Shown: positions 2,944 to 53,910 of the stretch, one piece after another
Layout of the letters: the number at the start of each line of letters is the position of its first letter
Position numbering within the stretch: the first letter of the stretch is position 1
Source: Octopus vulgaris
Lineage: Eukaryota
Assembly: GCA_951406725.2 (NCBI GenBank)
Contig: OX597814.1
Location: forward strand, 192,510,001-192,574,000
Direction: 5' to 3'
Length of the DNA: 64,000 bases
Notes under the pieces: model-generated
The model's database searches: none
Told to the model about the DNA's origin: nothing
The model's input: only the letters and a program-made list of their open reading frames with translations
Translations under genes and position numbers: made by a program

Positions 2944-2984
<41 letters not shown>

Positions 2985-3281
2985 TAGTAGATGTAACAGA
3001 GTGACTCAAGGACTGAGAGTTTCGTGTGTTAGCACTAATGTATGAAACCCTCAGCCGTTGAGTCACTCTGTTACTCCTACCAAATATAAATAAAATATAT
3101 ACATACATACACACTCATATTTTGAGTTTATATTTTCATGTTTGCATCACCAGACTCTTGTTAGTTAGTTAGTTAATTTGGCTCAAAAGCAAATAGCAAG
3201 GCCATGTAGGGGGACATGGAGTTAAGTACAGGGTGGTGTTCATGTAAAGAGTTCAGGCCACTTGAGGTCCAGGGAGGCTTT

Positions 3282-5322: not shown

Positions 5323-5910
5323 TATGTGAGCACAGGGTGTCATGAAACATGTACAACAAAAAAGTATGAAGCATGAGTACATGGAACATGAACTATTCTT
5401 TCGAACAACAAAGACACAAATCATCATCATCCTCATCATCGTTTAATGTCTGCTTTCAATGCTAGCATGGCTTGGACGATTTGACTGAGGTCTGGCGAAC
5501 CAAATGGCTGCACTAGGCTCCAATCTTGATCTGGCAGAGTTTCTACAGCTGGATGCTCTTCCTAACGCCAACCACTCCGAGAGTGTAGTGGGTACTTTTA
5601 CATGCCACCGGCACGAGGGCCAATCAGGCAGTACAGGCGATGGCCACGCTCAAATGGTGTTTTTTATATGACACCTGCACAGGAGCCAGACCTCGTTTGA
5701 ATATTTTTAAATGGAAAACAAAACAAACATCATAAAGAACAACCCTTCATCAGTTGTTGGCTGGTTTTCTAACCTTGTATTTCGAGCATTTAACAACAAT
5801 ATATATATATATAATTATTAGTATTATGGAATTTATTTCCGAGTCAACAAGAAAGAGAAATTCAATTTAGTGGTACTAAAATGCATTTCCCACTGTATTT
5901 TAAATACATA

Positions 5911-6089
5911 GATAGGTTTAAGAGACAGAACCACCTTCAAGCAACTCAATCAATATTGAACGACATTATCTATGATAGAGATATATAAGATTAAATATTT
6001 GATATTCAATCGTATATATCTCTATCATAGATAATGTCGTTCAATGTTGATTGAGTTGCTTGAAGGTGGTTCTGTCTCTTAAACCTATC
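5911..6089. repeat. Fold-back palindrome, 77-bp arms (1 mismatch), next to (TA)n
   Basis: gataggtttaagagacag...gagatatata and its reverse complement; coordinate sum 12000. Confidence 0.9.
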
Positions 6090-6093
6090 AATC

Positions 6094-6126
<33 letters not shown>

Positions 6127-6175: not shown

Positions 6176-6258
6176 AGCTTACAACTGTTTCTGCAATAAG
6201 ATGCAATGGATTCGTAGTTGAGTGCTTGAATAACACCCCTTATAGCTTCATCAGAACC
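6176..6258 (-). ncRNA. Type I minimal hammerhead motif (family E), slightly degenerate
   Basis: Minus strand ggtt-CTGATGA-a-gctataag...cttattgc-a-GAAA-C-agtt-G-TA-agct. The element is bounded by (TA)n on both sides (about 6093-6119 and 6325-6362). Confidence 0.65.
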
Positions 6259-6320: not shown

Positions 6321-6368
<48 letters not shown>

Positions 6369-6379
6369 TATATAGAAGG

Positions 6380-6430
6380 AGCTTCTACAGGACTAGAACT
6401 GTTTCATTCAAGAGAAATCTTCAGGAAGCT
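6380..6430 (-). ncRNA. Type I hammerhead motif (family F), sense to the ACOT8 pre-mRNA
   Basis: Reverse complement of the 51-nt motif at 7667..7717. Confidence 0.8.
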
Positions 6431-7036
6431 AGTTAACAAGAATTGTATTGGCATTTATACATTTAGGCAGGTTTATAGGGGTGGTGGTGGGGGACTTTTT
6501 GGGGGTAGGCATAGCGCAAAAAATCATACTTGGGGGAGTGGTCAAGGAGTCAGTGGTAAATTAGATAGAAGAATAAATAAAAGAATAAAAAAAGAATAAA
6601 AAAATATAAAATTATATAGAAGAATAGAGTTTTAGGTAAATAAGGAAATTCTCAACACACACACGTATGTGTATATACGTGTATGTATGTAGATGTATGT
6701 ATGTATGAATATAATGCGTGCGTGCGTGTATGTGTATGAGTGTATGAATGAGAGTGTGTGTGCGTGCTAATGAGTGTGCGTGCGTGAGTGAGTGCTTGTG
6801 CTCAAGTAGAAAGATAAAAGGGACTAGCCAAGATGTTTGTGACCAGCGGTCAAAGATAACAAAAGTAATAAATGAAGATAATAAAATTAAAATTAGGGAA
6901 TGGGTTTGTAATTGTATGTATATATGTGTGTATGTGTAGGTATGAATAGGTACACATATGTATGTATGTATGTGTATATATGTGTATGTGTGTGTGTGTA
7001 TACATACATATATGTGTATGAGTGGGTACACATATG

Positions 7037-7097
<61 letters not shown>

Positions 7098-7301
7098 ATA
7101 CATACATATATGTGTATATGTATATATGAGTATATAGGGACTTGTGTGTTGTGTGTGCATGTGTGTATGTGGATATGTGTGTGTATGTGAGTATGTGTAT
7201 GTGTGTGTATGTATATATTTCTTTGTGTGTATGTGTGGTCGTGTGTGTGTATATATACATGTGTGTGTGTATATGTATATGCATGTATATGTGTATGTAT
7301 G

Positions 7302-7332
<31 letters not shown>

Positions 7333-7357
7333 ATATGTGTAGATATATGTATGTATA

Positions 7358-7400
<43 letters not shown>

Positions 7401-7666
7401 GTTGTGTGTGTATGTATGTGTGTATGTATATGTGTGTGTGTTGAGAATTTCCTTATTTACCTAAAACTCTATTCTTCTATATAATTTTATATTTTTTTAT
7501 TCTTTTTTTATTCTTTTATTTATTCTTCTATCTAATTTACCACTGACTCCTTGACCACTACCCCAAGTATGATTTTTTTGCGCTATGCCTACCCCCAAAA
7601 AGTCCCCCACCACCACCCCTATAAACCTGCCTAAATGTATAAATGCCAATACAATTCCTGTTAACT

Positions 7667-7717
7667 AGCTTCCTGAAGATTTCTCTTGAATGAAACAGTT
7701 CTAGTCCTGTAGAAGCT
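7667..7717 (+). ncRNA. Type I hammerhead motif (family F), predicted cleavage after GUA at 7711
   Basis: agcttc-CTGAAGA-t-ttc-tctt-gaa-t-GAAA-cag-ttctagtc-ctg-TA-gaagct. Perfect 6-bp stem I, 3-bp stem II, helix III cag/ctg. Confidence 0.82.
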
Positions 7718-7800
7718 CCTTCTATATAATAAATTAATTTTACTCTGCTATGTATTGAGTACCTTATTTACTGTGGTTAACCCCGAATCAACCCGGGACC

Positions 7801-7843
<43 letters not shown>

Positions 7844-14190: not shown

Positions 14191-14661
14191 AGTGGTGGCA
14201 TTGGCGGTGATGGTGATGATAACGATGATGATGACTAAACCCTTTGCATTTAAACTAGCCATATCTGACCCAAATATTCTACTTGTTTTTTGTTGAAATT
14301 GGCCAGATTCAGCCTCTCACACCTACCCAACAATGTCATTCTTAAAAACAAAAAATCACATCATTGAATTCTCAAGGTTATAAGGTAACATAATTAATAC
14401 ATAATTAATTCAAAACAATTTGAATAAATAAGCATTACATTTGATAGAGTAATCTGAATGCTGAAGAGTTAAATACATTTACTAAAATGACCATTGTTTT
14501 TTAAGTTGACAGTATATAATTGAAAGGGAATTTGGTTGCTATTTCTAGCAGGTTGATTGGATGAACACAGAGAGGTGTTGTCATGAGCTTTACTAAAAAA
14601 AAAAGGTTTTTATGCAAAGTAATGACAAGAAAAGTGAATAGAAAATAAATTGATAACATAC

Positions 14662-14801
14662 CAGGAGAAAGAAAATAGTTGTGCATACTGTTTACATAAT
14701 ATTCTTTGGGTACAGTAGAAATAGCAGCACTGATTGCCTGCAGCATGAGATGCCCTCCAAAAGCAAATTTAAAATAGGAATGGACATGTAGTTTATTTCC
14801 T
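14662..14801 (-). CDS. ACOT8: ACOT8-like exon 2: (R)GNKLHVHSYFKFAFGGHLMLQAISAAISTVPKEYYVNSMHNYFLSP(G)
   Basis: Acceptor aattttag|A, donor CCTG|gtatgt, 140 nt (phase 2 to 1). FGG..QA..AA..TV and SxHxYFL.PG are hot-dog thioesterase II motifs. Confidence 0.9.
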
Positions 14802-14927
14802 CTAAAATTGATAAAAAACAGAAAGGAAAAATAAAATTTCTTAATAAATGTCTGAAATTAAAAAATATGTTAAATAACAGAATATTCTTGATAGGCAAAA
14901 AAAAAAAAAAAATTTTTTTAAATGGTT

Positions 14928-15583: not shown

Positions 15584-18520
15584 AATTATTGTATACAGTG
15601 CTCAGGTGCACTACAACTTGTCAAAAGTGCGTATAAATCATATGCAGTAATGTACAAATGTCTGGAAAGTGAACAGTGTATGAGTCAGATACATGCTTGC
15701 GTGTGTATGGAAGGGAGAAAATCAGGTGTAGTGTTGGCAAATCTCAGGAAGCATGGAAGTTTTGAAGGATGCAGTGCTCGGACAACTAACAACTGATGCC
15801 GGCAGTTTGTTCCATGCTTCAGTAACTCTTAGCGTGAAAAAAAGGTTTCCGAAAGTTATGGGAGCTGTGCTGTTTTCTGACTTTGTAAACATGTCCACGG
15901 GTGTTAGACAGGTGGAGTTTGAAAAGGTGCTCAGTTATTGTTAGTAAGATTAATTAATAATTTTATGGTCAAGAAGTTAGTTTTCTAATCATGTGGTCCC
16001 ACTGTGCAACACCTTGAACATGTGTCTTCTGCTACAGCCCGTTGTGAGTGAATTTGGTAGATGAAATATGTTATTCATATTCTGATATTATCATAACTGA
16101 GAAGGATGTTGTGTAAGAAATAAAACTCATTTTTTACCAATTGCACAATTTTCTGAAATGTACATACTAAATGCATTCAAAATAGCAATGCTTAGTTTGA
16201 CTTCATTGTATGTGTGTGTATGTACACATGTGCACACACACACACACACACACAATGAAGTAATTTAATATGTACATTTTAGATAACTTTGCAATTGAGA
16301 AAAAATGAGTTTCATCTCAAAATGAATGAGTTTGTTTGTCCCCAATAACTATTTGACAATTGGTGTTTGTTTGTTTATGTCCCTGTAACTTAGTGGTTTG
16401 ACTAAAAGAAGCTGATAGTACAAGTACCAAACTTTAAAAAAAAGTACTGGGGTTGATTTGTTTTTGATTAAACCTTTTAAGGTGGTGCTCCAGCATGGCA
16501 GCAGTCCAATGACTAAAACGAGCAAAGGATAAAAGATAAAGATTTATTTATTTATCTTTTGTTTCAGTCATTAGATTGTGGCCATGCTGGAGCACTGCCT
16601 TTTACTGAACTGTTAAGTTACAGAGATGTGAACAAACCAACACCAGTGGTGGAGGAAAAACACAGACACAAACATACACACACACACACATATACAATGG
16701 GCTTCTTTCAGTTTCCGTCTACCAAATCCACTCACAAGGCTTTGGTCAACCTGAAGCTATACTGGAAAACACTTCGCCAAGGTGCCAAGCAGTGGAACTG
16801 AACCTGGAACCATGTGGTTAAGAAACTAACTTCTAACCACACAACCACACTAGTGCCTTTGAGAAATAATACAATTTTCAATTTTCTTTTTTGAGATAAG
16901 AGTCATATTCTACAAGACATTATAATTTCCATTACTAGCATATCTAATTCTTAATACATTCCAACAGATTCGAACATGAATATGTTAATTACAGCTGTAT
17001 TTTGTTAGAGGAGAACAATTTCTGTTATGACAAAACTCTGATCCATTAGAAGTTGATTCATTAGCACTTGCTGATGAATCTTCCAGAATGCATCAGGAAT
17101 AAATATGCTGTTCACTGCTCATAATTTATTCATAATTTATAATTTCTAAAAACTTTTGTATTTGGTTTGTAAGATTTTTATATGTAAAATGCATTTTGTT
17201 TTATCATATGAGGATTATTATGCCAAATATTCTTTGCTTTTTTGTTTTGTTTTAGAATACTCTAAGCTTTGATCTAAGTAGTGGAAAATGTGCCTTCTGC
17301 TTTATCATCTGAATTTGGCAAGATTCAGACTCTTTCATTAAACATTGTATGTATAATGATCCATTCAAGTTAGAAACAGAATTCTTGTAAGCTATAAACA
17401 TATAAGTTTTTAATTGGTTGAAATTGAAACTTTTAGGTGAAGAAAAGTAATTAGCGCTAAAGAAAATTGTTTTCAAGGCGGGAAAGGGTGAGAACACACA
17501 ATATTCCAATCAATAAATAATTAAGTGTAAATATGCAGCAGGGGAATGAACCTGTTCTCTGAGGACATGGTTCAGTTATATTTGACCTTTTCAACATGTA
17601 TATGTGTGTGTATGTATACATACAAATATATAGATGTATATACAGATTAGGAAATAATTTTATTCTTAAACACAGGATAATGCTAATAATATAGCACGAA
17701 CAGGATAAACTATACATATTTTGCATTGTACCAATGTATGAAGTTTATGAACTATGAGCAATAACAAACCTTGAACTTCATACATTGCTATGCATTTCTC
17801 TACATCAGATTCTCTGTACATCTCCACATAAAATTTTCCTACCTATACGTAAAAAGCACCCACTACACTCACGGAGTGGTTGGCGTTAGGAAGGGCATCC
17901 AGCTGTAGAAACACTGCCAGATCAGACTGGGTCTGGTGCAGCCTTCTGGCTTCCCAGACCCCAGTTGAACCGTCCAACCCATGCTAGCATGGAAAACGGA
18001 CGTTAAATGATGATGATGATGATGATATTCTCTTACTTATATGCTTTATATTTGTCTCTGATGATGGAATACCCAGTATATGTAAATGTGGATCAACATT
18101 TTGATCCATTATCCCAGAAACAGCTGTAAGACACTGTTATTTTTATGTTTGCTTACTTTGCTTCAGCATTAAATTAATCTAAATGAACTGATAAGCTTGT
18201 CTTGCCTTGATTTTGTCTTCCTCTTCTTTAAATTACACTTACTGACTTGAAGGTAGGTTGCAGATCGCTGGTTTTCTCCCTACTGGACTGTGGCTACCAC
18301 AACTCCAGCCCCCCACCCCCTTGTGAACTTGGGTCCTAGTAGCTTATCAACTGGAGCACTCACACTGCATACCTATTAGTTTAGGTTACCAGTGACCTAA
18401 ACTCTTCTTCTATATATGTGCATGTGTGTGAGATATATGTATATACATTTATATGGTGATTCCCATCATGAATCAGAGCTGAAATACTTAAAATATGTGG
18501 TGGTGTGGGTTATTGTCTTA

Positions 18521-23963: not shown

Positions 23964-24841
23964 AATATATATATATATACATACATACATATATACATAT
24001 ACATATACATACATAGAGACACACACACACACATATATATATATACATATACCCATATATCATCATCATCATCGTTTAACGTCCACTTTCCATGCTGGCA
24101 TGGGTTGGATGGTTTGACTGAGGTCTGCCAAGCCAGTGGGTTGCACCAGGCTCCAATCTGATCTGGTAATGTTTCTACAGCTGGGTGCCCTTCCTCACGC
24201 CAGAGAGTATAGTGGGTGCTTTTTACATGCTACTGGCATGGGAGCCAGTCAAGGGGCACTGGCATCAACTATGTTTAGACGGTGCTTTTTACATGCCATT
24301 AGCACGGGAGCCAGTCAGAGGGCACTGGCATCGACCACATTCAGTTGGTGCTTTTTATGTGCCACCAGCACAGAAGCCAGTCAGGCGGCAGTGGCCACAG
24401 CTATGATTTCAAGATATATATATATATGTATGTATGTATATATATACATACACACTCACACAAACACACACATATCATCACAATGTATCATAATTCTGGA
24501 AAAGAAGAACACTCTAAAACAGGCAGAAGGCCCGAAACTTTTTGGGAGGTGGGGCCCCCACTCGATTAGATTAACCCCAGTACACAACTGGTACTTAATT
24601 TATCGACTCCAAAAGGATGAAAGGCAAAGTCAATCTCAGTGGAATTTGAACTCAGAAAGTAAAGACAGAAGAAATACTGCTAGCCTGGTGTGCTAACGTT
24701 TCTGCCAGCTTGCCACCTTAGAGCAGTAAAGTAATAAAGTTAATGTCGGGCCATAGTGTGACCAATGGTTTCGCATCCACAAAGGCCTTAGCCTCACAAA
24801 CATCTCAGCAGATTCTAAAGAGTTGAATTTGTCTTCAGCTT

Positions 24842-24905
24842 TAGAGTCTGATGAGACATCTGTGAAGCCAAGGCCTTTGTGAATACGAAACCGTTGGTCA
24901 CTCTA
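24842..24905 (+). ncRNA. Type I hammerhead motif (family G), predicted cleavage after GUC at 24899
   Basis: tagagt-CTGATGA-g...c-GAAA-cc-gtt-gg-TC-actcta, with a perfect 6-bp stem I. The inverted partner at 24754..24817 has a mutated core (CTGCTGA). Confidence 0.75.
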
Positions 24906-25521
24906 TGACTCGACATTTACTTTCTAACTTTAATACACACACATACACGTGTGTGTGCGTGTGTACACATACAGGTTTTACATTTGAGTGAGAAAAAGTA
25001 TCTTAGACACAACAGGAAGGTCAGATATGATGGGCCTATTATAAAGAGGGGTCAAGAACAAATATAGTCATCAGAACTCTTAGTTTACAAGTATATCACT
25101 CACATCGCCTTTGTAGTCTCTATCCTGACAAGTACATTTGGTTTTCTGAATTGGCTACTGCAAAAACTTATCAAGATGAATGTAAGAACTTAAAACCTGC
25201 TCAGTGTTAGAGGAATTTTGAATATACTTCAGCCAAGGTAACTCAGTTAGGAATGGCAGACAGACAAGATCTGGTGACAAAGAAGTGGACAAGGAAACAG
25301 AACACAGTAATACGTTGATGTCAGGCACGATTCAGTATCAGATGAGTTTGTCAGCCAGGCCTACCAAATACTAAGAATTAACAGCACGGACGACCCAACT
25401 CCTAGTAGCTGACACTTAGATTCACTCACTTTTCTCTGTCTCTCTGTGTAGATCTTTCTCATTTGCACATAACTACAGAATCTGTCCAACCAAACCACTG
25501 CACAGGAAAAAAAAAACTTTC

Positions 25522-27239: not shown

Positions 27240-27319
27240 CTAAAGACATTAGGTTCCACACATGTCATCGCCAACAACTCATCAAGATACTTCTCTGGAT
27301 CGAATCCTTGTATATCCAT
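27240..27319 (-). CDS. ACOT8: Acyl-CoA thioesterase 8-like (TesB family), coding exon 1: MDIQGFDPEKYLDELLAMTCVEPNVF(R)
   Basis: ATG at 27319 with an in-frame upstream TAA. Exon ends TTTAG|gtatga (80 nt, phase 2) and joins exon 2 in frame to give FRG, matching the ACOT8/TesB N-terminal LxLExLxxxxFRG pattern. Confidence 0.8.
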
Positions 27320-28164: not shown

Positions 28165-28648
<484 letters not shown>

Positions 28649-28653
28649 GAAGG

Positions 28654-28749
28654 AGCTTCTACAGGACTAGAACTGTTTCATTCAAGAGAAATCTTCAGGA
28701 AGCTTCCTGAAGATTTCTCTTGAATGAAACAGTTCTATCCTGTAAAGCT
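28654..28749. ncRNA. Two family F hammerheads back to back (28654..28704 minus, intact; 28701..28749 plus, two 1-nt deletions) sharing the AGCT pivot
   Basis: Same 51-nt motif as 7667..7717; palindrome centred on gaagcttc. Confidence 0.75.
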
Positions 28750-28832
28750 CCTTCTATATAATAAATTAATTTTACTCTGCTATGTATTGAGTACCTTATT
28801 TACTGTGGTTAACCCCGAATCAACCCGGGACC

Positions 28833-28863
<31 letters not shown>

Positions 28864-28909
28864 GGTAAGAATTTAAATATATATATATTTATACATTCTT
28901 ACATATATG

Positions 28910-30704: not shown

Positions 30705-30740
<36 letters not shown>

Positions 30741-30750
<10 letters not shown>

Positions 30751-31012
30751 TTCGAGACAAAACCACTATTTTGCAAAACAAACAAGGAAAGACTTAATCA
30801 ATGCATAAAAATTTTTAATATAAAGAAATTTAATATAAGAAATTTCTTTATATTAAAAATTTTTATGTATTGATTAAGTCTTTCCTTGTTTGTTTTGCAA
30901 AATAGTGGTTTTGTCTCGAATTAATATTATATAATATTTTACTATAAAATTGGATTTAATCCTAAATCTGATTTTTTCCCTGTAAATTTGGATTTATTCC
31001 CTAATATTTATT
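30741..31012. repeat. Fold-back palindrome (91-bp arms 30741..30930, 1 mismatch, 8-nt loop) plus one-sided tail, inserted in the (TA)n tract of a SINE
   Basis: Coordinate sum 61671; (TA)n on both sides. Confidence 0.9.
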
Positions 31013-31875: not shown

Positions 31876-32381
31876 ATGCACTCACATACATGTGCGTGTG
31901 CACATGCATACTTACACGCCCCCGCACACACACACAGACACATTTATATGACAAACTTCTTTCAGTTTCCATCTACCAAATCCACTCACAAGGGTTTATT
32001 ATTCTACCAAATATATACGTTTTATTTTTTTTTTTGCACATTACTTAATCATTGGTATATTTTTTATCTTATATTTAATATTTCTATTATATGTAATTTT
32101 CTAGATGGTGTAATTTAATTTTTCATTTTGAATTGATAAAAGGTGGTTTTTTTTCTAATTTATATATATATATGTATGTATATATAATATATATATACCC
32201 GTGTAAGCACATAAATGTGAAACAAGGTGAGGAAAATAGTACTCGAATTTTGGAGGTAGAGTAATATGATTTATTATTAAAGCTGCAAAAACATCACAAA
32301 AAACTGCTACTCAGAGTTTCATATTCCTGTCCATCGAGCAGTTGTAATCAAGAACTGCTTAATGAATGGGAACATGATTGC

Positions 32382-32423
32382 AACTGCCCGGTGAACAGGA
32401 AGGTGAAATTCTGAGTAGCAGTT
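32382..32423 (+). ncRNA. Decayed hammerhead motif (family I); inverted partner at 32302..32343
   Basis: aactgc-ccggtga-acaggaaggt-GAAA-ttctgag-TA-gcagtt. Perfect stem I, core mutated in both copies, plus a third partial copy aactgc-ttaatga near 32353. Confidence 0.5.
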
Positions 32424-32467
32424 TTTTGTGATATTCTTATGACATTTTTGCAGCTTTAATAATAATG

Positions 32468-36029: not shown

Positions 36030-36449
36030 GGATCTTTTCGGTTTGAACGGCAGTTTTTAACATAATTTCTAAGCAACTAAAAAATTTTAAACTTCGTATA
36101 CTGGTAGAATGTGTTTATAAAACATCTTTTTCTCTTGGCTTTATTGAGAAAATTCTATAGTTTGTAAGATATTTGTCCATTTTTTTTCTTCAATTTCTTC
36201 AATTTCAACCAATCAGCGACGTCTATTGAGGTAAAAAAATGCATTCTGTGCCGTATGAATATGTTCCTCGTTTAAGAAACAGATTGGGTTTATTTACATT
36301 TGTGAAGAAAAAAAGATACCCTTCCCCCACTCCTAACCCTAACCCTAAAACAGATTGAAATGCAATAGATCGATACTAGGGTCATAATTATGGGTGACAA
36401 TTTCATATGACACTGCTAGAAAAAACTGCCGTTCAAACCGAAAAGATCC
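36030..36449. mobile_element. Merlin-type MITE with 8-bp TSD ctgctctg
   Basis: TIR GGATCTTTTCGGTTTGAACGGCAGTTTTT; TSD at 36022..36029 and 36450..36457; internal cctaaccctaaccctaa. Confidence 0.8.
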
Positions 36450-36854
36450 CTGCTCTGCAATGGTGCTCAGCTGGTATTCATTTGCAGTTGAGTAGACTGG
36501 AGTAGCGTGAAATGAAGTGCCTGTTGAAGGGCAAAACGCACCGCCTCATCAAAGAGTCGAACCAATGACTTTAAGACCGTTAGATATTACCCTAAAAACT
36601 CGGCAATGAACCTCGCTCTACATATACAAATACGCATACACATGCATCTATATACATGCACATACGTATGTACGTATGTACACTAGCGTAACTAGAACGT
36701 GTGCCGCCCGGGCGGCCCTTCAGTTTGCTGCCCCCGGACTTCATAGAAGACACATATTGCCTAGAGCAGACCCGAAAGTGGTTTCCCTTTAAAAGTGCCG
36801 CCCAGGGTGGACCATCACTACTGATCCCCCCACCTCACCCCCAGTACGCTAGTG

Positions 36855-38776: not shown

Positions 38777-40055
38777 TATGAGCGTGGGCTGAAAATTCGT
38801 GGGATGACTGTGAAGGAGTGATGCTAGAGCTGTGAAATCTTGCATGCATTAATTTCAGCCCTACTTACTAACCCCGCCTTAGCGTAGGCGGAGGTATTGT
38901 TTGTTTGTTTGTCCATGGACAAGATATCTCAAGAACCGCAGGATGGATTCGGACGAAACTTTCGGGAATGTTTGGCCTCATGACTGGCACAAACTGATTA
39001 GATTTTGGGATCAATCCGGTACCGGACAAGGATTCTGGATTATTTTTCCGATTTTTTTACTTAATTTTTGAGAGCAGTCGGGTTCATTTTTAGTATTCTC
39101 GTTTGTGAGAGCAGTCGAGTTCATTTCAGTATTCTCATTTGAAAAATCATCTCCGTCTAATCGCTGAGAGGACGTTGATGTTGCCTTGGCGGAGGTTTGC
39201 GCTTTCTGAGTGCTCTTGTTAATAATTGCATTGTTTCTTTCCAAGTTAACTGACATCTGACTGTTCAAAGACTTCGAAAGTAACAAGTAGCAACTTCGCT
39301 TGAAAATCGACAAAATTTGGCATCATGGTGTTATCAAGTAATTGTAGGAAAAGGGTTTAGCTCAAAACGACATTCAGGCTAACATGGTTGCTACACTAGG
39401 GAATGACGCTCCAGCTTTATCAAAAGTGTACAAGTGGGCAGCTGAATGTAAGAGGGGAAGGGAGAGTCTTGAAGATGACCCAAGGTTTGGACATCCTGAA
39501 ACCGCCACCACCAAGGAAAACATTGATCATGTTCACCACATGCTGAGGGATAACAGGCGATTGGCTATAAATCAAATAATCAATGCTATTAGCATATCCC
39601 GTGAGAAAATTGAGAATATTCTGCACAATGAGTTTGGCATGACGAAGGTTTCAGCTCAGTGGGTCCCACGTCTTCTGATACCTGATCAAAAGCACACCAG
39701 GCTGATCGTGTCACAAGAAAATCTGACATTATTTCAGGTAGATCCAGCTGGTTTCCTTGAACGTTTCTTAAGCCAGGATGAGTGCTGGGTTCTACACTTT
39801 TTGCCAGAGACAAAAAAAATAATCAGTGCAGTCAAAATACTCCTCCTCACCTGCTCCAAAGAAGGCCAAGATTGTTTCAACAGTAAGGAAAGTGATGGCT
39901 TCAGTTTTTCTGTGATGCAAAAGATGTGTTTATTGACTATCTTCAAAAAGATCACATCATCAATTTTATGGGGTAGTTATGAAAGGCTATCAAGACCAAA
40001 TGCCCAGGGAAAATGATGAAAGGGCCTTCTTTCATTAGAACAATGCTCCAGCATG
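38777..40055 (+). mobile_element. Decayed mariner transposon, interrupted at 38868..39221
   Basis: ORF 39384..40016: HTH region KVYKWAAECKRGRESLEDDPR.G, WVPRLL and QDECWV; decayed H..NAP near 40030. Confidence 0.88.
38868..39221 (+). mobile_element. Helentron/DINE-1-like non-autonomous element nested in the mariner
   Basis: 5' stem-loop ccgcct...aggcgg, a (TTTG)n tract, and a second ggcggagg subterminal repeat near the 3' end. Confidence 0.55.
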
Positions 40056-40057
40056 CA

Positions 40058-41392
40058 TGCGCTTCAGTGTGAATTCCACAAAGTCTGCAACGGTTGTCAT
40101 ATTTTACGGCTTTTCCTGCATCTCTGTCTCTTTTGTGCATCAGGTACTTGGTTGATATTTCCAGTTCCTGGATTACAAACGCACACCCTTCAAAGTGAGA
40201 GGTCGTAACCCGGCAATTGGTCCATGATAAACTGTTTTTATGATCGATGTTACTATCATCACGGAGCTTTCTACTAACATATCCATGCATAGTCTACTGC
40301 TCATATAGGATATCCTTTCATCTGATAATACGTTGCGGTAGAGTCGTGCGGCTTCTTTGGGTATATATTCTAGGTTATCAGATAAAGAGTGTTGCTCAAG
40401 GAGCTGCCTGCCAAGTCTTATGATGTTATCAGCCTCATGTATGCAAACTTGGTCAAGGAGTGCACTTCGACACTTGGTGGTTAAAAGATATTGCCGAAGA
40501 TATTGCGACATTCAAAGTCATTTTGGATCGATGTTAAGCCTCTGCCGCCTTGTTTTCGTTTTAGATAGAGGCGGTCTACGTCACTGTTTATGTGAAAATT
40601 GCGTACTTGTTTGTATTTTTAGGGTTTTCACATCAATGGCTCGGATATGATGAAGCGTCCAATCAAGCAGCCCAAATGTTGATATGTCTACTGGCACTGC
40701 AAACACATTGTGGTCCACTGTTTTATTGAATGCAGAGAGTTCTGAGGTCCAAATTTTCTTTATTCGGCTGTAATATTCTTTAGTGACATGTGTTTTGTTA
40801 CAGGTGCCATCGTAAGATATGTTTTCGTCCACCCCTAGGTACCTGTAACATTCCTCGTCAGATACAAGCGAAACAGTTAAATCATTGGTGGAGATATTAC
40901 TAGTCTGGTTTATAGTTTTCCTCCTTTTCACAACCATATTACAACACTTATCCTGACCGAACTCCAACCCTACATACTTTGAGAATGTTGTAAATAGGTC
41001 AAGGCTCTTTTTCATCTCATGCATATTCTTTGTATAAAGTTTTAAGTCACCCACAAAGAAACAGTGTTTATTTTTGGTATTTCTGTTTCCTTGTGAACCA
41101 GTGAGATATCCTTCAGACTTGCCTAACATGAATGACAAGGAGTTTATAGAAAGTATAAACAACATCACAGAGAGGCTGTCTCCTTGGAATATGCCTTTGG
41201 CAATACTGTATTCTATCGGTGGTGATACAGTCACTCTTTGAGTTTAATTTCAAGATGGTGGCCCACGATGAAGTCAGGTCAGCTATGGCTTTGACTATTC
41301 TCACTGGAACTTTAGCAAGTTGAAGGGCTTCTAGCATCCATGAGTGGGGAATAGAGCCAAAGGCTTTCTTGTAGTCTAGCCACAAACTTTCC
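40058..41392 (-). mobile_element. R4/Dong-like LINE reverse transcriptase fragment
   Basis: WLDYKKAFGSIPH, GIFQGDSLS, FFVGDLKLY (decayed YMDD), YRYLGV and a CRLC knuckle; frameshifted. Confidence 0.88.
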
Positions 41393-41589
41393 GAGTGTAA
41401 TCGCATGCAGAGAGTGAATGTGTGTTGTTCTTTGCTGTCACATCTCACGAATGAACCTTTTTTGGACAAAATAGTGATTGGTGATGAGAAATGGGTTCTC
41501 TATAAAAATGTTAAGCCTCTGCTGCCTTGTTTTAGGTTTTAGGTACCTTGGGGATGATAATTAGCTGGCCAGTCTGTTCCCGAGACAGC

Positions 41590-43192
41590 CAGATTGTGGA
41601 TAGTCGGTTTCAGCGTACGCGGACGACATCACCATCATCGTAATCGAAATGGATGACCTACAGATGGTAGGCAAGGCCATTGAAGAATACGAGACGGTGG
41701 CAGGAGCAAAGGTTAATCGTGAAAAGTCAGTCGGCTTGTAGCTCGGCACCTGGAGCGGCAAGTCGATGCCTCCTGACAGCGACGTGGGATGTTGGATGGA
41801 GAGTCCGATTAAATTGCTAGGAGTCTGGTTTGGATCAGGCCTCCAAACAGAGAAGAACTGGGCCGAGGTAGCGAATAGGGTGGCTCACATAGCCAAGACC
41901 TGGTCTTGGCGGTGGCTATCCCTGAAATGGAGGGCGGAGGTGGCCAATGTGTTCATCGCATCGGTCTTCACCAACCGCCTAACCGTCGTTCCTTGCCCTG
42001 ATTCGTGGTTGAGCAAGCTGGAAAGACAGCTCTTCTGCTTCTTGTGGAAGGGCTCGAATCCGCTTGTGAGACGCTCTATTTGCTGCCAACAACCGTTAAA
42101 GGATGGGCTAGGGATGCCTTGACTGATGATGTACAGGCACGCGCTGAGGTTGAGGCATCTGTGGCTCCATCTGGATGGTGATCGGGTGTGGTCTCCGCTA
42201 GCGAAACAGATGTTTCCCAAGTTCACTTGTTTCGGTGGACTGGATACCTGGTTCTATCGTAGATCAAAGTTGGGTAAATGGTTCACGGAGTGTCGTAAGA
42301 CCCTCCGGATATTCTATCTCTCGGGCGGCGCCTGCGGTAGTGGTCCTACCACATTCTTTTATAGAGAGTTGGGAGAGGAGAAATGTGACGATACCTTGGG
42401 GAAAGCCCTAGGTCTCGATGATAATTAGCTGCCCAGTCTGTTCCAACGTACATTCGGGCCGAAGACGATGGATAACTTCCAGAAGTCTTTGGCATGGCAA
42501 TGATACCGAGGAGCGTTACTTGTCCGGGACAAGCTCGCAAGGCATGGTGGCCCTGGCCCACTGACCTGTCCAAGATGTGGGCGGGACAGGGAAACCGTTC
42601 CGCACGCTATTGTTCAGTGTTCGGAGGTGGCAGATGTGTGGGTTTATGCCGAACAACTGTTGTCAAGTACAGGAAGAGTACAGCTATCGACTGAGTCAAT
42701 AGTAAAAATTGACCCACTGGATTTCCTATCGAAAGAAGGTAAGAATTGCTTTCTCATCGTAGTAGCAATTGCGAGAGAGGTGATTTGGAATACTCGAATG
42801 AAAGGGTTAATAACAGGCATTTTTATCTCTGGCCCTGGTTTGGTGAATTTTTTCACCTTCCACGTAAGAAGGAAAATAGGGTTAGAGAAAAAATAACTGT
42901 CCGCGAAAATGTTTCAAGATCGATGGAAGAATGTCGCGTATGGATGAAACTGCATGAATACAACGCAGGACGAACCCAAAGCATCAGTGGTGAGACGGGG
43001 CTCGTGGGGTCCGAGCATATCCCGCCTCCCCACTCCATTCTGTATTGTTGTCTTGCATATGTTATACTTCGAACTATTCATATTTATATAAAATTTTTAA
43101 ATTCATCTTTTTGTTAACTCATACAATAAATCTGACCCCATATCAGATTGTACTGTCCCCTCTTTGTTGTCCCCTTGTGGGAAATAAAAAGT
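41590..43192 (+). mobile_element. L1/Tx1-clade LINE 3' portion
   Basis: SAYADDI, GAKVNREKS, KLLGVWF, FLWKG, GLGMP and a CPRC-type knuckle; aataaa at 43183. Confidence 0.85.
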
Positions 43193-49331: not shown

Positions 49332-49752
49332 GGATCTTTTCGGTTTGAACGGCATTTTTTTCTAGGGTGTCATGAAATTGTCACCCATAATTATGACCCT
49401 AGTATCGATCTATTGCATTTCAATCTGTTTTAGGGTTAGGGTTCGGGTTAGGGGTGGGGGGAAGGGTATCTTTTTTTCTTCAGAAATGTAAATAAACCCA
49501 ATCTGTTTCTTAAACGAGGGACATTTTCATACGGCACAGAATGTTTTCACCTCAATAGACGTCATTGATTGGTTGAAATTGCAGAAATTGAAGAAGAAAA
49601 AACAACAAATATCTTACAAACTATAGAATTTTCTCAATAAAGCCAAGAGAAAAAGATGTTTTATAAACACATTCTACCAGTATACGAAGTTAAAAAGTGT
49701 TTAGTTACGTGGAAATTATTTTAAAAAACTGCCGGTCAAACCGAAAAGATCC
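49332..49752. mobile_element. Same Merlin-type MITE, opposite orientation
   Basis: Same TIRs and interior. No 8-bp TSD; flanked instead by a 122-bp direct duplication. Confidence 0.8.
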
Positions 49753-49957
49753 AGTAACTCCATAAAACATAAATGCTATGATACTTTGCATACATGATAC
49801 TATATTGTTATTAACGCTATATTTTCATCATCTCCACATTTTGAACTAAATCTTCGTCCCAAATATTGTGGGAAATTATGTACATCTGGCGACATCTGAT
49901 AATCTAGAAACTCATCGTGAAGCATTTTCAATTACATCGCTGAATAAAACAAATAAA

Positions 49958-50389
49958 GGATCTTTTCGGTTTGAACGGCAGTTTTTTTAAAATAATTTCC
50001 CCGTAACCAAACACTTTTAAACTTCGTATACTGGTAGAATGTGTTTATAAAACATAATTTTCTCTTGGCTTTCTTGAGAAAATTCTATAGTTTGTAAAAT
50101 ATTTGTTGTTTTTTTTTCTTCAATTTCTGCAATTTCAACCAATCAGTAACGTCTATTGAGGTGAAAACATTCTGTGCCGTATGAATATGTCCCTCGTTTA
50201 AGAAACAGATTGGGTTTATTTACATTTCTGAAGAAAAAAAGATACCATTTCCCCCACCCCTAACCCTAACTCTAACCCTAACCCTAAAATAGATTGAAAT
50301 TCAATAGATCGATACTAGGGTCATAATTATGGGTGACAATTTAATATGACACCGCTAGAAAAAAACTGTCGTTCAAACCGAAAAGATCC
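49958..50389. mobile_element. Same Merlin-type MITE with 8-bp TSD caaataaa, 248 bp upstream of the TSR3 ATG
   Basis: TSD at 49950..49957 and 50390..50397. Confidence 0.82.
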
Positions 50390-53822: not shown

Positions 53823-53910
53823 TGTAGTACAATCGTTTCATGCTACTTCATTTAATTAAACAATGTAAGTAATGCATCAGTTTTAAAATGTAGAGCAATC
53901 TTCAGCCACA
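53823..53910 (-). ncRNA. Type I minimal hammerhead motif (family M) in TSR3 intron 2, antisense to TSR3
   Basis: Minus strand tgtgg-CTGAAGA-t-tgct...agca-t-GAAA-C-gatt-G-TA-ctaca. The element (53790..53956) sits in the (TA)n tract of a SINE. Confidence 0.72.

Follow-up and report, generated by a model that had tools for sequence, protein, structure and literature searches.

A spacer-free head-to-head hairpin with hammerhead-like motifs in an Octopus vulgaris (AT)n tract, very probably the end-piece of a Penelope-like element

Penelope-like elements (PLEs) that carry an endonuclease have been described as inserting in a characteristic manner, in which a copy typically lies next to an inverted, 5'-truncated copy, the tail is present on one side only, and the target is biased toward microsatellites (PMC8557442). 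Palindromes are reported to be abundant at the inverted junctions of PLEs, where they have been interpreted as products of self-priming (PMC3846280), and truncated PLEs are known in which pairs of hammerhead motifs lie on opposite strands, 100-700 bp apart (PMC4209133). A purified PLE protein has more recently been reported to cleave AT-rich DNA and to extend both strands, with two start sites that bound the tail, and ribozyme cleavage was described as dispensable for it (PMC11167929).

The window analyzed here, to which all coordinates refer, is a stretch of 64,000 nucleotides from Octopus vulgaris (assembly GCA_951406725.2, contig OX597814.1, positions 192,510,001 to 192,574,000 of the forward strand), and it is dense in repeats and short hairpins. 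One of these hairpins, at 28638-28766, has arms of ~66 bp each and zero spacer; together with its tail we call it locus 2, as it shares its sequence with a second inverted pair in the window, locus 1, the two making up what we call family F. Locus 2 is composed as follows.

28500-28637, no strand: (AT)n target, left flank of locus 2; a target-site duplication is unreadable inside (AT)n.
28638-28702, minus strand: tail-less minus arm of ~65 nt, whose outer end runs into (AT)n at the element position where the locus 1 minus arm also stops (6363).
28654-28704, minus strand: intact type I hammerhead-like motif of the minus arm, with helix I of 6 bp, helix II of 3 bp closed by U.U, helix III of 4 bp with an 8-nt loop, and a GUA triplet.
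28701-28704, no strand: AGCT pivot common to both arms, a native 4-nt palindrome with which stem I opens.
28701-28749, plus strand: the motif as it occurs in the plus arm, lacking one G after 28737 and another after 28744 by alignment to locus 1.
28750-28766, plus strand: remaining part of the plus arm with a mirror image in the minus arm.
28767-28835, plus strand: one-sided 69-nt tail, identical to 7735-7803, with a small predicted stem-loop at its end.
28836-28864, no strand: (AT)n target, right flank of locus 2.

The center of symmetry lies between 28702 and 28703, with 35 bp of perfect palindrome on either side, and the AGCT at 28701-28704, common to both arms, forms the opening four bases of stem I on its 5' strand. 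The claim of the earlier note on this DNA that the inversion pivots, with no spacer, on the AGCT opening stem I is thus borne out. The "back-to-back hammerheads" of which it spoke exist at the DNA level but not per transcript, where there is a single sense copy and a read-through RNA would fold into a long hairpin; the predicted fold of 28640-28770 reaches -89.4 kcal/mol (z -17.5), and none of 200 shuffles folded as well.

It had also been noted that the same sequence and tail recur at 7667-7803, 21 kb away, and the alignment agrees: the plus arm of locus 2 matches 7667-7828 at 98.8%, and the tail, present on one side only, is equal to 7735-7803 at all 69 of its bases. Between the two loci there are no substitutions and three single-base gaps. 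Two of these are the 1-nt deletions previously recognized in the plus arm, both of them Gs that appear as gaps against locus 1: the one after 28737 falls in loop III of the motif, and the one after 28744 removes the base immediately 3' of the predicted cleavage site. The third is at the outer end of the minus arm. The earlier reading did not include the counterpart of the copy at 7667-7803: this copy belongs to the plus arm of another inverted pair (6363-6668 / 7428-7803).

6363-6668, minus strand: tail-less minus arm of locus 1, 306 nt, with a hammerhead-like motif (core at 6424).
6669-7427, no strand: spacer of locus 1, 759 nt, mainly TG/TA microsatellite, with no coding frame.
7428-7803, plus strand: plus arm of locus 1, containing the motif (7667-7717) and the tail (7735-7803), beyond which lies (AT)n.

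The arms of locus 1 are 98.7% alike, differing by two substitutions and one homopolymer gap in 306 nt, and lie 759 nt apart; the spacer between them is probably the upstream sequence of the plus arm, as its strand bias suggests. Both family F loci, 21 kb from one another, have the same outer ends, with the minus arm stopping at an AT-rich place and the plus arm closing with its tail. Their inner junctions differ, that of locus 2 being on stem I and that of locus 1 ~240 nt upstream in a TG/CA tract, and the pivot is therefore at stem I in one of the two family F loci of the 64-kb window. Anatomy, common outer ends and junction geometry can all be read directly from the two loci.

When set against the PLE insertion unit (PMC8557442; PMC3846280), locus 2 has the same head-to-head arms, one-sided tail, AT-rich microsatellite target and junction palindrome, but it lacks an ORF, its tail is 69 nt rather than 30-40 bp, and its junction is spacer-free and positioned on stem I of the motif. 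Across the family, an adjacent, inverted and 5'-truncated head-to-head copy, (AT)n flanks on both sides and an identical one-sided tail (69 nt, versus the 30-40 bp of described families) are each present at two of two loci. Locus 2 is very probably a heavily 5'-truncated, non-coding stub of a young PLE in (AT)n, of which only the pseudo-LTR end is left. This PLE origin is proposed from the anatomy, by which membership had to be judged because no PLE frame is attached to either locus: there is no RT or GIY-YIG frame at either family F locus, both being truncated stubs, and a Pfam search of 16 frames from the window returned no PLE protein, the matches being a LINE-type RT fragment and a weak thioesterase match (E 0.024, below the cut-off). 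Read in this way, locus 2 is one example of an already described by-product of PLE insertion, a dead end-piece, with a zero-spacer junction. As family F is young, with fixed outer ends and variable junctions, it provides a test case for how head-to-head copies form and for the role of the hammerhead in PLEs.

The occurrence of the hammerhead-like motif in the window is not due to chance. Its core has the CUGANGA, GAAA and NUH boxes, a helix I of 6 bp, a helix III of 4 bp with a partly palindromic loop, and a GUA triplet. A strict descriptor of this arrangement finds three sites in the window (7673 on the plus strand, 6424 and 28698 on the minus strand), all of them in family F, and none in any of 60 block shuffles, and a loose descriptor finds eight, against a shuffle mean of 0.03; the plus-arm motif of locus 2, at 28707, fails the strict descriptor because of its deletions. 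Minimal type I hammerheads of PLE pseudo-LTRs (PMC4209133) are alike in the core boxes, the unpaired U after position 9, helix I, the partly palindromic loop of helix III and the pairing of motifs on opposite strands. In those motifs, however, the G10.1-C11.1 pair that closes helix II is described as conserved and helix II is long in most (PMC4209133), whereas in family F helix II has only 3 bp, U.U replaces G10.1-C11.1 in all four arms, Rfam gives no match and activity is only putative. At the gathering score, Rfam reports no hammerhead in the whole window, and none of the 14 matches obtained up to E 10 within 7560-7830 is a hammerhead. The hammerhead shape is calculated at -7.3 kcal/mol, against -8.5 for the minimum-energy structure, and plain folding of the monomer motif is no better than that of shuffles (z -1.1 to 0.2), so that folding energy is no evidence for a ribozyme. 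Because of the U.U in place of G10.1-C11.1, we call the motif hammerhead-like, a label that describes its letters, and do not file it as a working ribozyme. An ATG lies inside helix II and its frame stops after four codons, in contrast to Anolis Poseidon, in which the ORF begins inside the ribozyme (PMC11167929).

Poseidon is otherwise alike in its AT-rich target and in the two fixed 3' ends that bound the tail, and priming from both strands, as described for it, would account for the two arms of family F (PMC11167929). Non-LTR retrozymes are also similar in being non-coding, PLE-related and equipped with a type I hammerhead, but they are described as head-to-tail tandem arrays, whereas family F consists of single head-to-head pairs (10.64898/2026.07.22.740005). 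A non-LTR retrozyme was ruled out as the identity of locus 2, the family F copies in the window being only inverted pairs, with no tandem copy.

How, then, did the fold-back form? The earlier note had proposed that the self-complementary stem I helix (AGCTTC/GAAGCT) served as the priming or template-switch site. A short self-complementary word probably did mediate the join, but it was not that helix: the simulated product of stem I priming first differs from the observed sequence three bases past the center, whereas the product of a join on AGCT matches it. Stem I pairing, considered as a primer, would have recopied only the sequence downstream of the ribozyme; as the whole ribozyme is duplicated at locus 2, the stem I helix was not the primer. 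Words of the AGCT kind are plentiful, as there are 21 native 4-mer palindromes within 7428-7734 (five of them within 7655-7720, where the AGCT at 7667 has palindromic neighbors at 7660, 7665, 7701 and 7714), AGCT being one of the 21. With so many available, one event on AGCT is no evidence of a hotspot, and a single pivot on the ribozyme or next to it is not surprising, especially since the family F stubs are short.

As to the route, we infer, on balance, that locus 2 most likely arose by priming on two strands followed by microhomology joining. A PLE protein would nick both strands of the AT-rich target, and each nick would prime a cDNA on the element RNA, one starting from the tail end and the other 69 nt upstream, thereby generating the two fixed outer ends. 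Both cDNAs would terminate early and, as they are of identical sequence, could anneal only by inverted microhomology; a palindromic word, such as AGCT, would then give a spacer-free join, and a non-palindromic word would give a spacer, as at locus 1. The ribozyme motif would have been a passenger in the copied end, and stem I pairing would not be what folded the DNA. L1 inversions mostly span different parts of one RNA, whereas both family F arms copy the same end. L1 twin priming is nevertheless comparable in that the inverted segment is primed by the second target strand (PMC10191854). A blunt join of two ends that both start at the C would give the same letters as the AGCT join, and the sequence alone, being compatible with a two-strand microhomology join, with self-priming or with later loss of a spacer, cannot separate these.

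The alternative to two-strand priming that survives best, although we consider it doubtful, is a self-primed fold-back, in which a single cDNA (or an antisense template) would turn at AGCT and be recopied, after which a nuclease would trim the second arm at a fixed site and leave the tail on one side. Such a route yields an identical sequence; it is, moreover, the published explanation for the palindromes at PLE inverted junctions (PMC3846280), and the PLE tail has been attributed to nuclease resolution (PMC8557442). When a single strand folds back on itself, however, a loop normally remains (41 nt in the yeast case of PMC11724301), and locus 2 has none, and the in vitro work links the tail to two RT start sites (PMC11167929).

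It is improbable, but consistent with the letters, that locus 2 is what remains of a longer, locus 1-like inverted pair whose center was later deleted between two copies of AGCT, which form a direct repeat across the arms. Deletion of locus 1 in silico between the AGCT at 6427 and that at 7667 indeed gives locus 2, with no substitutions and three gaps. The collapse would nevertheless have made a perfect palindrome out of a spaced inverted repeat, usually the more stable form; it would also have had little time in which to occur, as the copy is young, and no longer allele was seen. Microhomology-mediated deletions have, for their part, been described as common in PLE copies (PMC3846280).

For the position of pivots relative to the ribozyme, no published mapping of PLE inversions was found in the passages of the literature examined, and a comparison is offered by an analogue set from metagenome contigs. 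The exact family F core has no match in these contigs, and a looser hammerhead core gives at least 113 loci. A search of sequencing runs with 33 sampled words lists 23 runs, all of them as contigs, of which nine contain at least half of the words and none is an RNA set, a result from which no conclusion is drawn. Among the 119 matches listed for them, 63 were kept by a filter for the canonical PLE-type helix pattern, corresponding to 43 distinct contexts, and 56 were dropped as probable chance. A back-to-back upstream partner motif is present in 20 of the 43 contexts among the matches listed; these represent ~17 distinct pairs, as three were seen from both sides, and two more share a junction. 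The distances from stem I to stem I range from 33 to 966 nt, none being 0 among the matches listed, with 171-1598 nt of upstream sequence available. By eye, two of the 48 listed copies (L019+ and L094+) lose the family-type upstream sequence at about stem I. Nothing beyond the core is common to these loci and family F (best E 0.12), hence they serve as an analogue only, and neither a GIY-YIG motif nor a PLE frame is found in the 33 loci translated. Belonging to another family, and coming from assemblies that may break at perfect hairpins, they are weak evidence on the pivots of family F. At L036 and L079, as at L009 and L026, hammerhead pairs sit in different flanks with the same spacer. An inverted unit can itself multiply, and a pivot shared by several copies need not represent independent events.

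Within the window there are four head-to-head pairs with hammerhead-like parts. The junction of one falls on stem I and that of another next to it, a third pair joins within helix II and the fourth far upstream. The pair at 24727-24932, which is decayed and belongs to another hammerhead-like family, has its junction ~2 nt before stem I on one arm and a 20-nt spacer. The short hairpin at 2969-3097 has only the 3' half of a hammerhead-like motif in each arm, with its pivot, by eye, inside the apparent helix II and a 2-nt loop.

In a modified form of the earlier note's proposal, the 5' edge of the ribozyme would be a favored site for cDNAs to stop or switch, owing to a defined RNA end, a splice acceptor or the RNA fold, such that pivots accumulate there. 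We rate this as about as improbable as a later collapse. The pivot of locus 2 is exactly on stem I and that of the pair at 24727-24932 is ~2 nt from it, the native sequence has an acceptor-like AG just before the center, the intron of Penelope in D. virilis is reported to end at the 5' end of helix I (PMC4209133), and there are the two of 48 listed analogue copies whose upstream similarity, judged by eye, is lost at about stem I. The literal form of this proposal, stem I pairing, gives the wrong product, however, the junction of locus 1 is ~240 nt away, a distance of zero occurs in none of the 20 analogue contexts with a partner among the matches listed, and cleavage by the ribozyme would cut the sequence short on the opposite side of the motif rather than at its 5' edge.

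A related and slightly less probable reading takes the 5' edge of stem I in hammerhead-bearing PLEs as a preferred place for cDNAs to stop and join, and the G missing 3' of the cleavage site in the plus arm as a real scar left when the RT crossed self-cleaved RNA held together by stem I. The exact pivot, the second family whose junction is ~2 nt from stem I, and the deletion on the very base of the cleavage site all point this way. The loss of that G was noticed post hoc, though, each lost G comes after TA, a pattern expected of a systematic sequencing error, no stem I peak is seen at locus 1 or in the analogue set, and ribozyme cleavage is reported to be dispensable in vitro (PMC11167929). 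If the reading were true, the genome itself would document in vivo cleavage by the PLE hammerhead and its effect on insertions.

That a chimeric long read or a consensus error produced the hairpin is very hard to credit, for although three single-base deletions without any substitution relative to locus 1 resemble uncorrected long-read errors, and base quality may be low, the symmetry ends at the element boundary with flanks that are not mirrored, the minus arm and its locus 1 counterpart have a common outer end, which no artefact would bring about, and the arms of several further short hairpins in the window have diverged (75-96%), hence such structures are genomic. The hairpin is therefore unlikely to be an artefact, and the three deletions of locus 2 may well be sequencing errors.

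One probable coding exon is a neighbor outside the element.

27240-27319, minus strand: probable first coding exon of an ACOT8/TesB-like gene, with an ATG at 27319, a 26-codon frame and a splice-donor-like end.

The hairpin had been said to lie 1.3 kb upstream of the ACOT8 start codon. The distance stands, the ATG at 27319 (minus strand) being 1321 bp from 28640, while the gene call is only plausible and is made by way of a downstream exon, 14660-14806, which matches acyl-CoA thioesterase II (E 1.8e-5); the frame at 27319 would be the first exon of that thioesterase gene. A cis-regulatory role of the hairpin for the gene was considered and rejected, as nothing ties the one to the other. Double-stranded RNA or a fragile site could in principle arise from a 66-bp hairpin situated 1.3 kb upstream of a gene.

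Several other elements in the window have a fold-back or hammerhead-like character. At 2048-2813, a young palindromic element sits in (TAA)n with 345-nt arms that are 100% alike; its hammerhead-like motifs (2074 on the plus strand, 2787 on the minus strand) are near the outer ends and face inward, giving a tail-to-tail layout that is opposite to that of family F and is the rarer one in PMC3846280. Single hammerhead-like motifs with a long helix II and a palindromic helix III are found at 18058 (plus strand), 53905 (minus strand) and 6254 (minus strand). The one at 53905 is ~70% like the family of 2048-2813, and there too U.U closes helix II; the one at 6254 is ~110 nt from the minus arm of locus 1. 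Three 200-bp fold-back elements that lie beside (AT)n (5901-6099, 30733-30937 and 32271-32465), the first two with similar outer ends, have no hammerhead core and could be ribozyme-less PLE ends or miniature inverted-repeat elements. A decayed mariner-like transposase frame (by eye; Pfam recognizes an HTH only) and LINE-type RT fragments (RVT_1, zf-RVT) occupy 39348-40016, 40581-41499 and 41742-43117. Finally, an element at 49332-50389 has long terminal inverted repeats together with a few units of a telomere-like repeat, and one of its arms recurs at 36030-36450.
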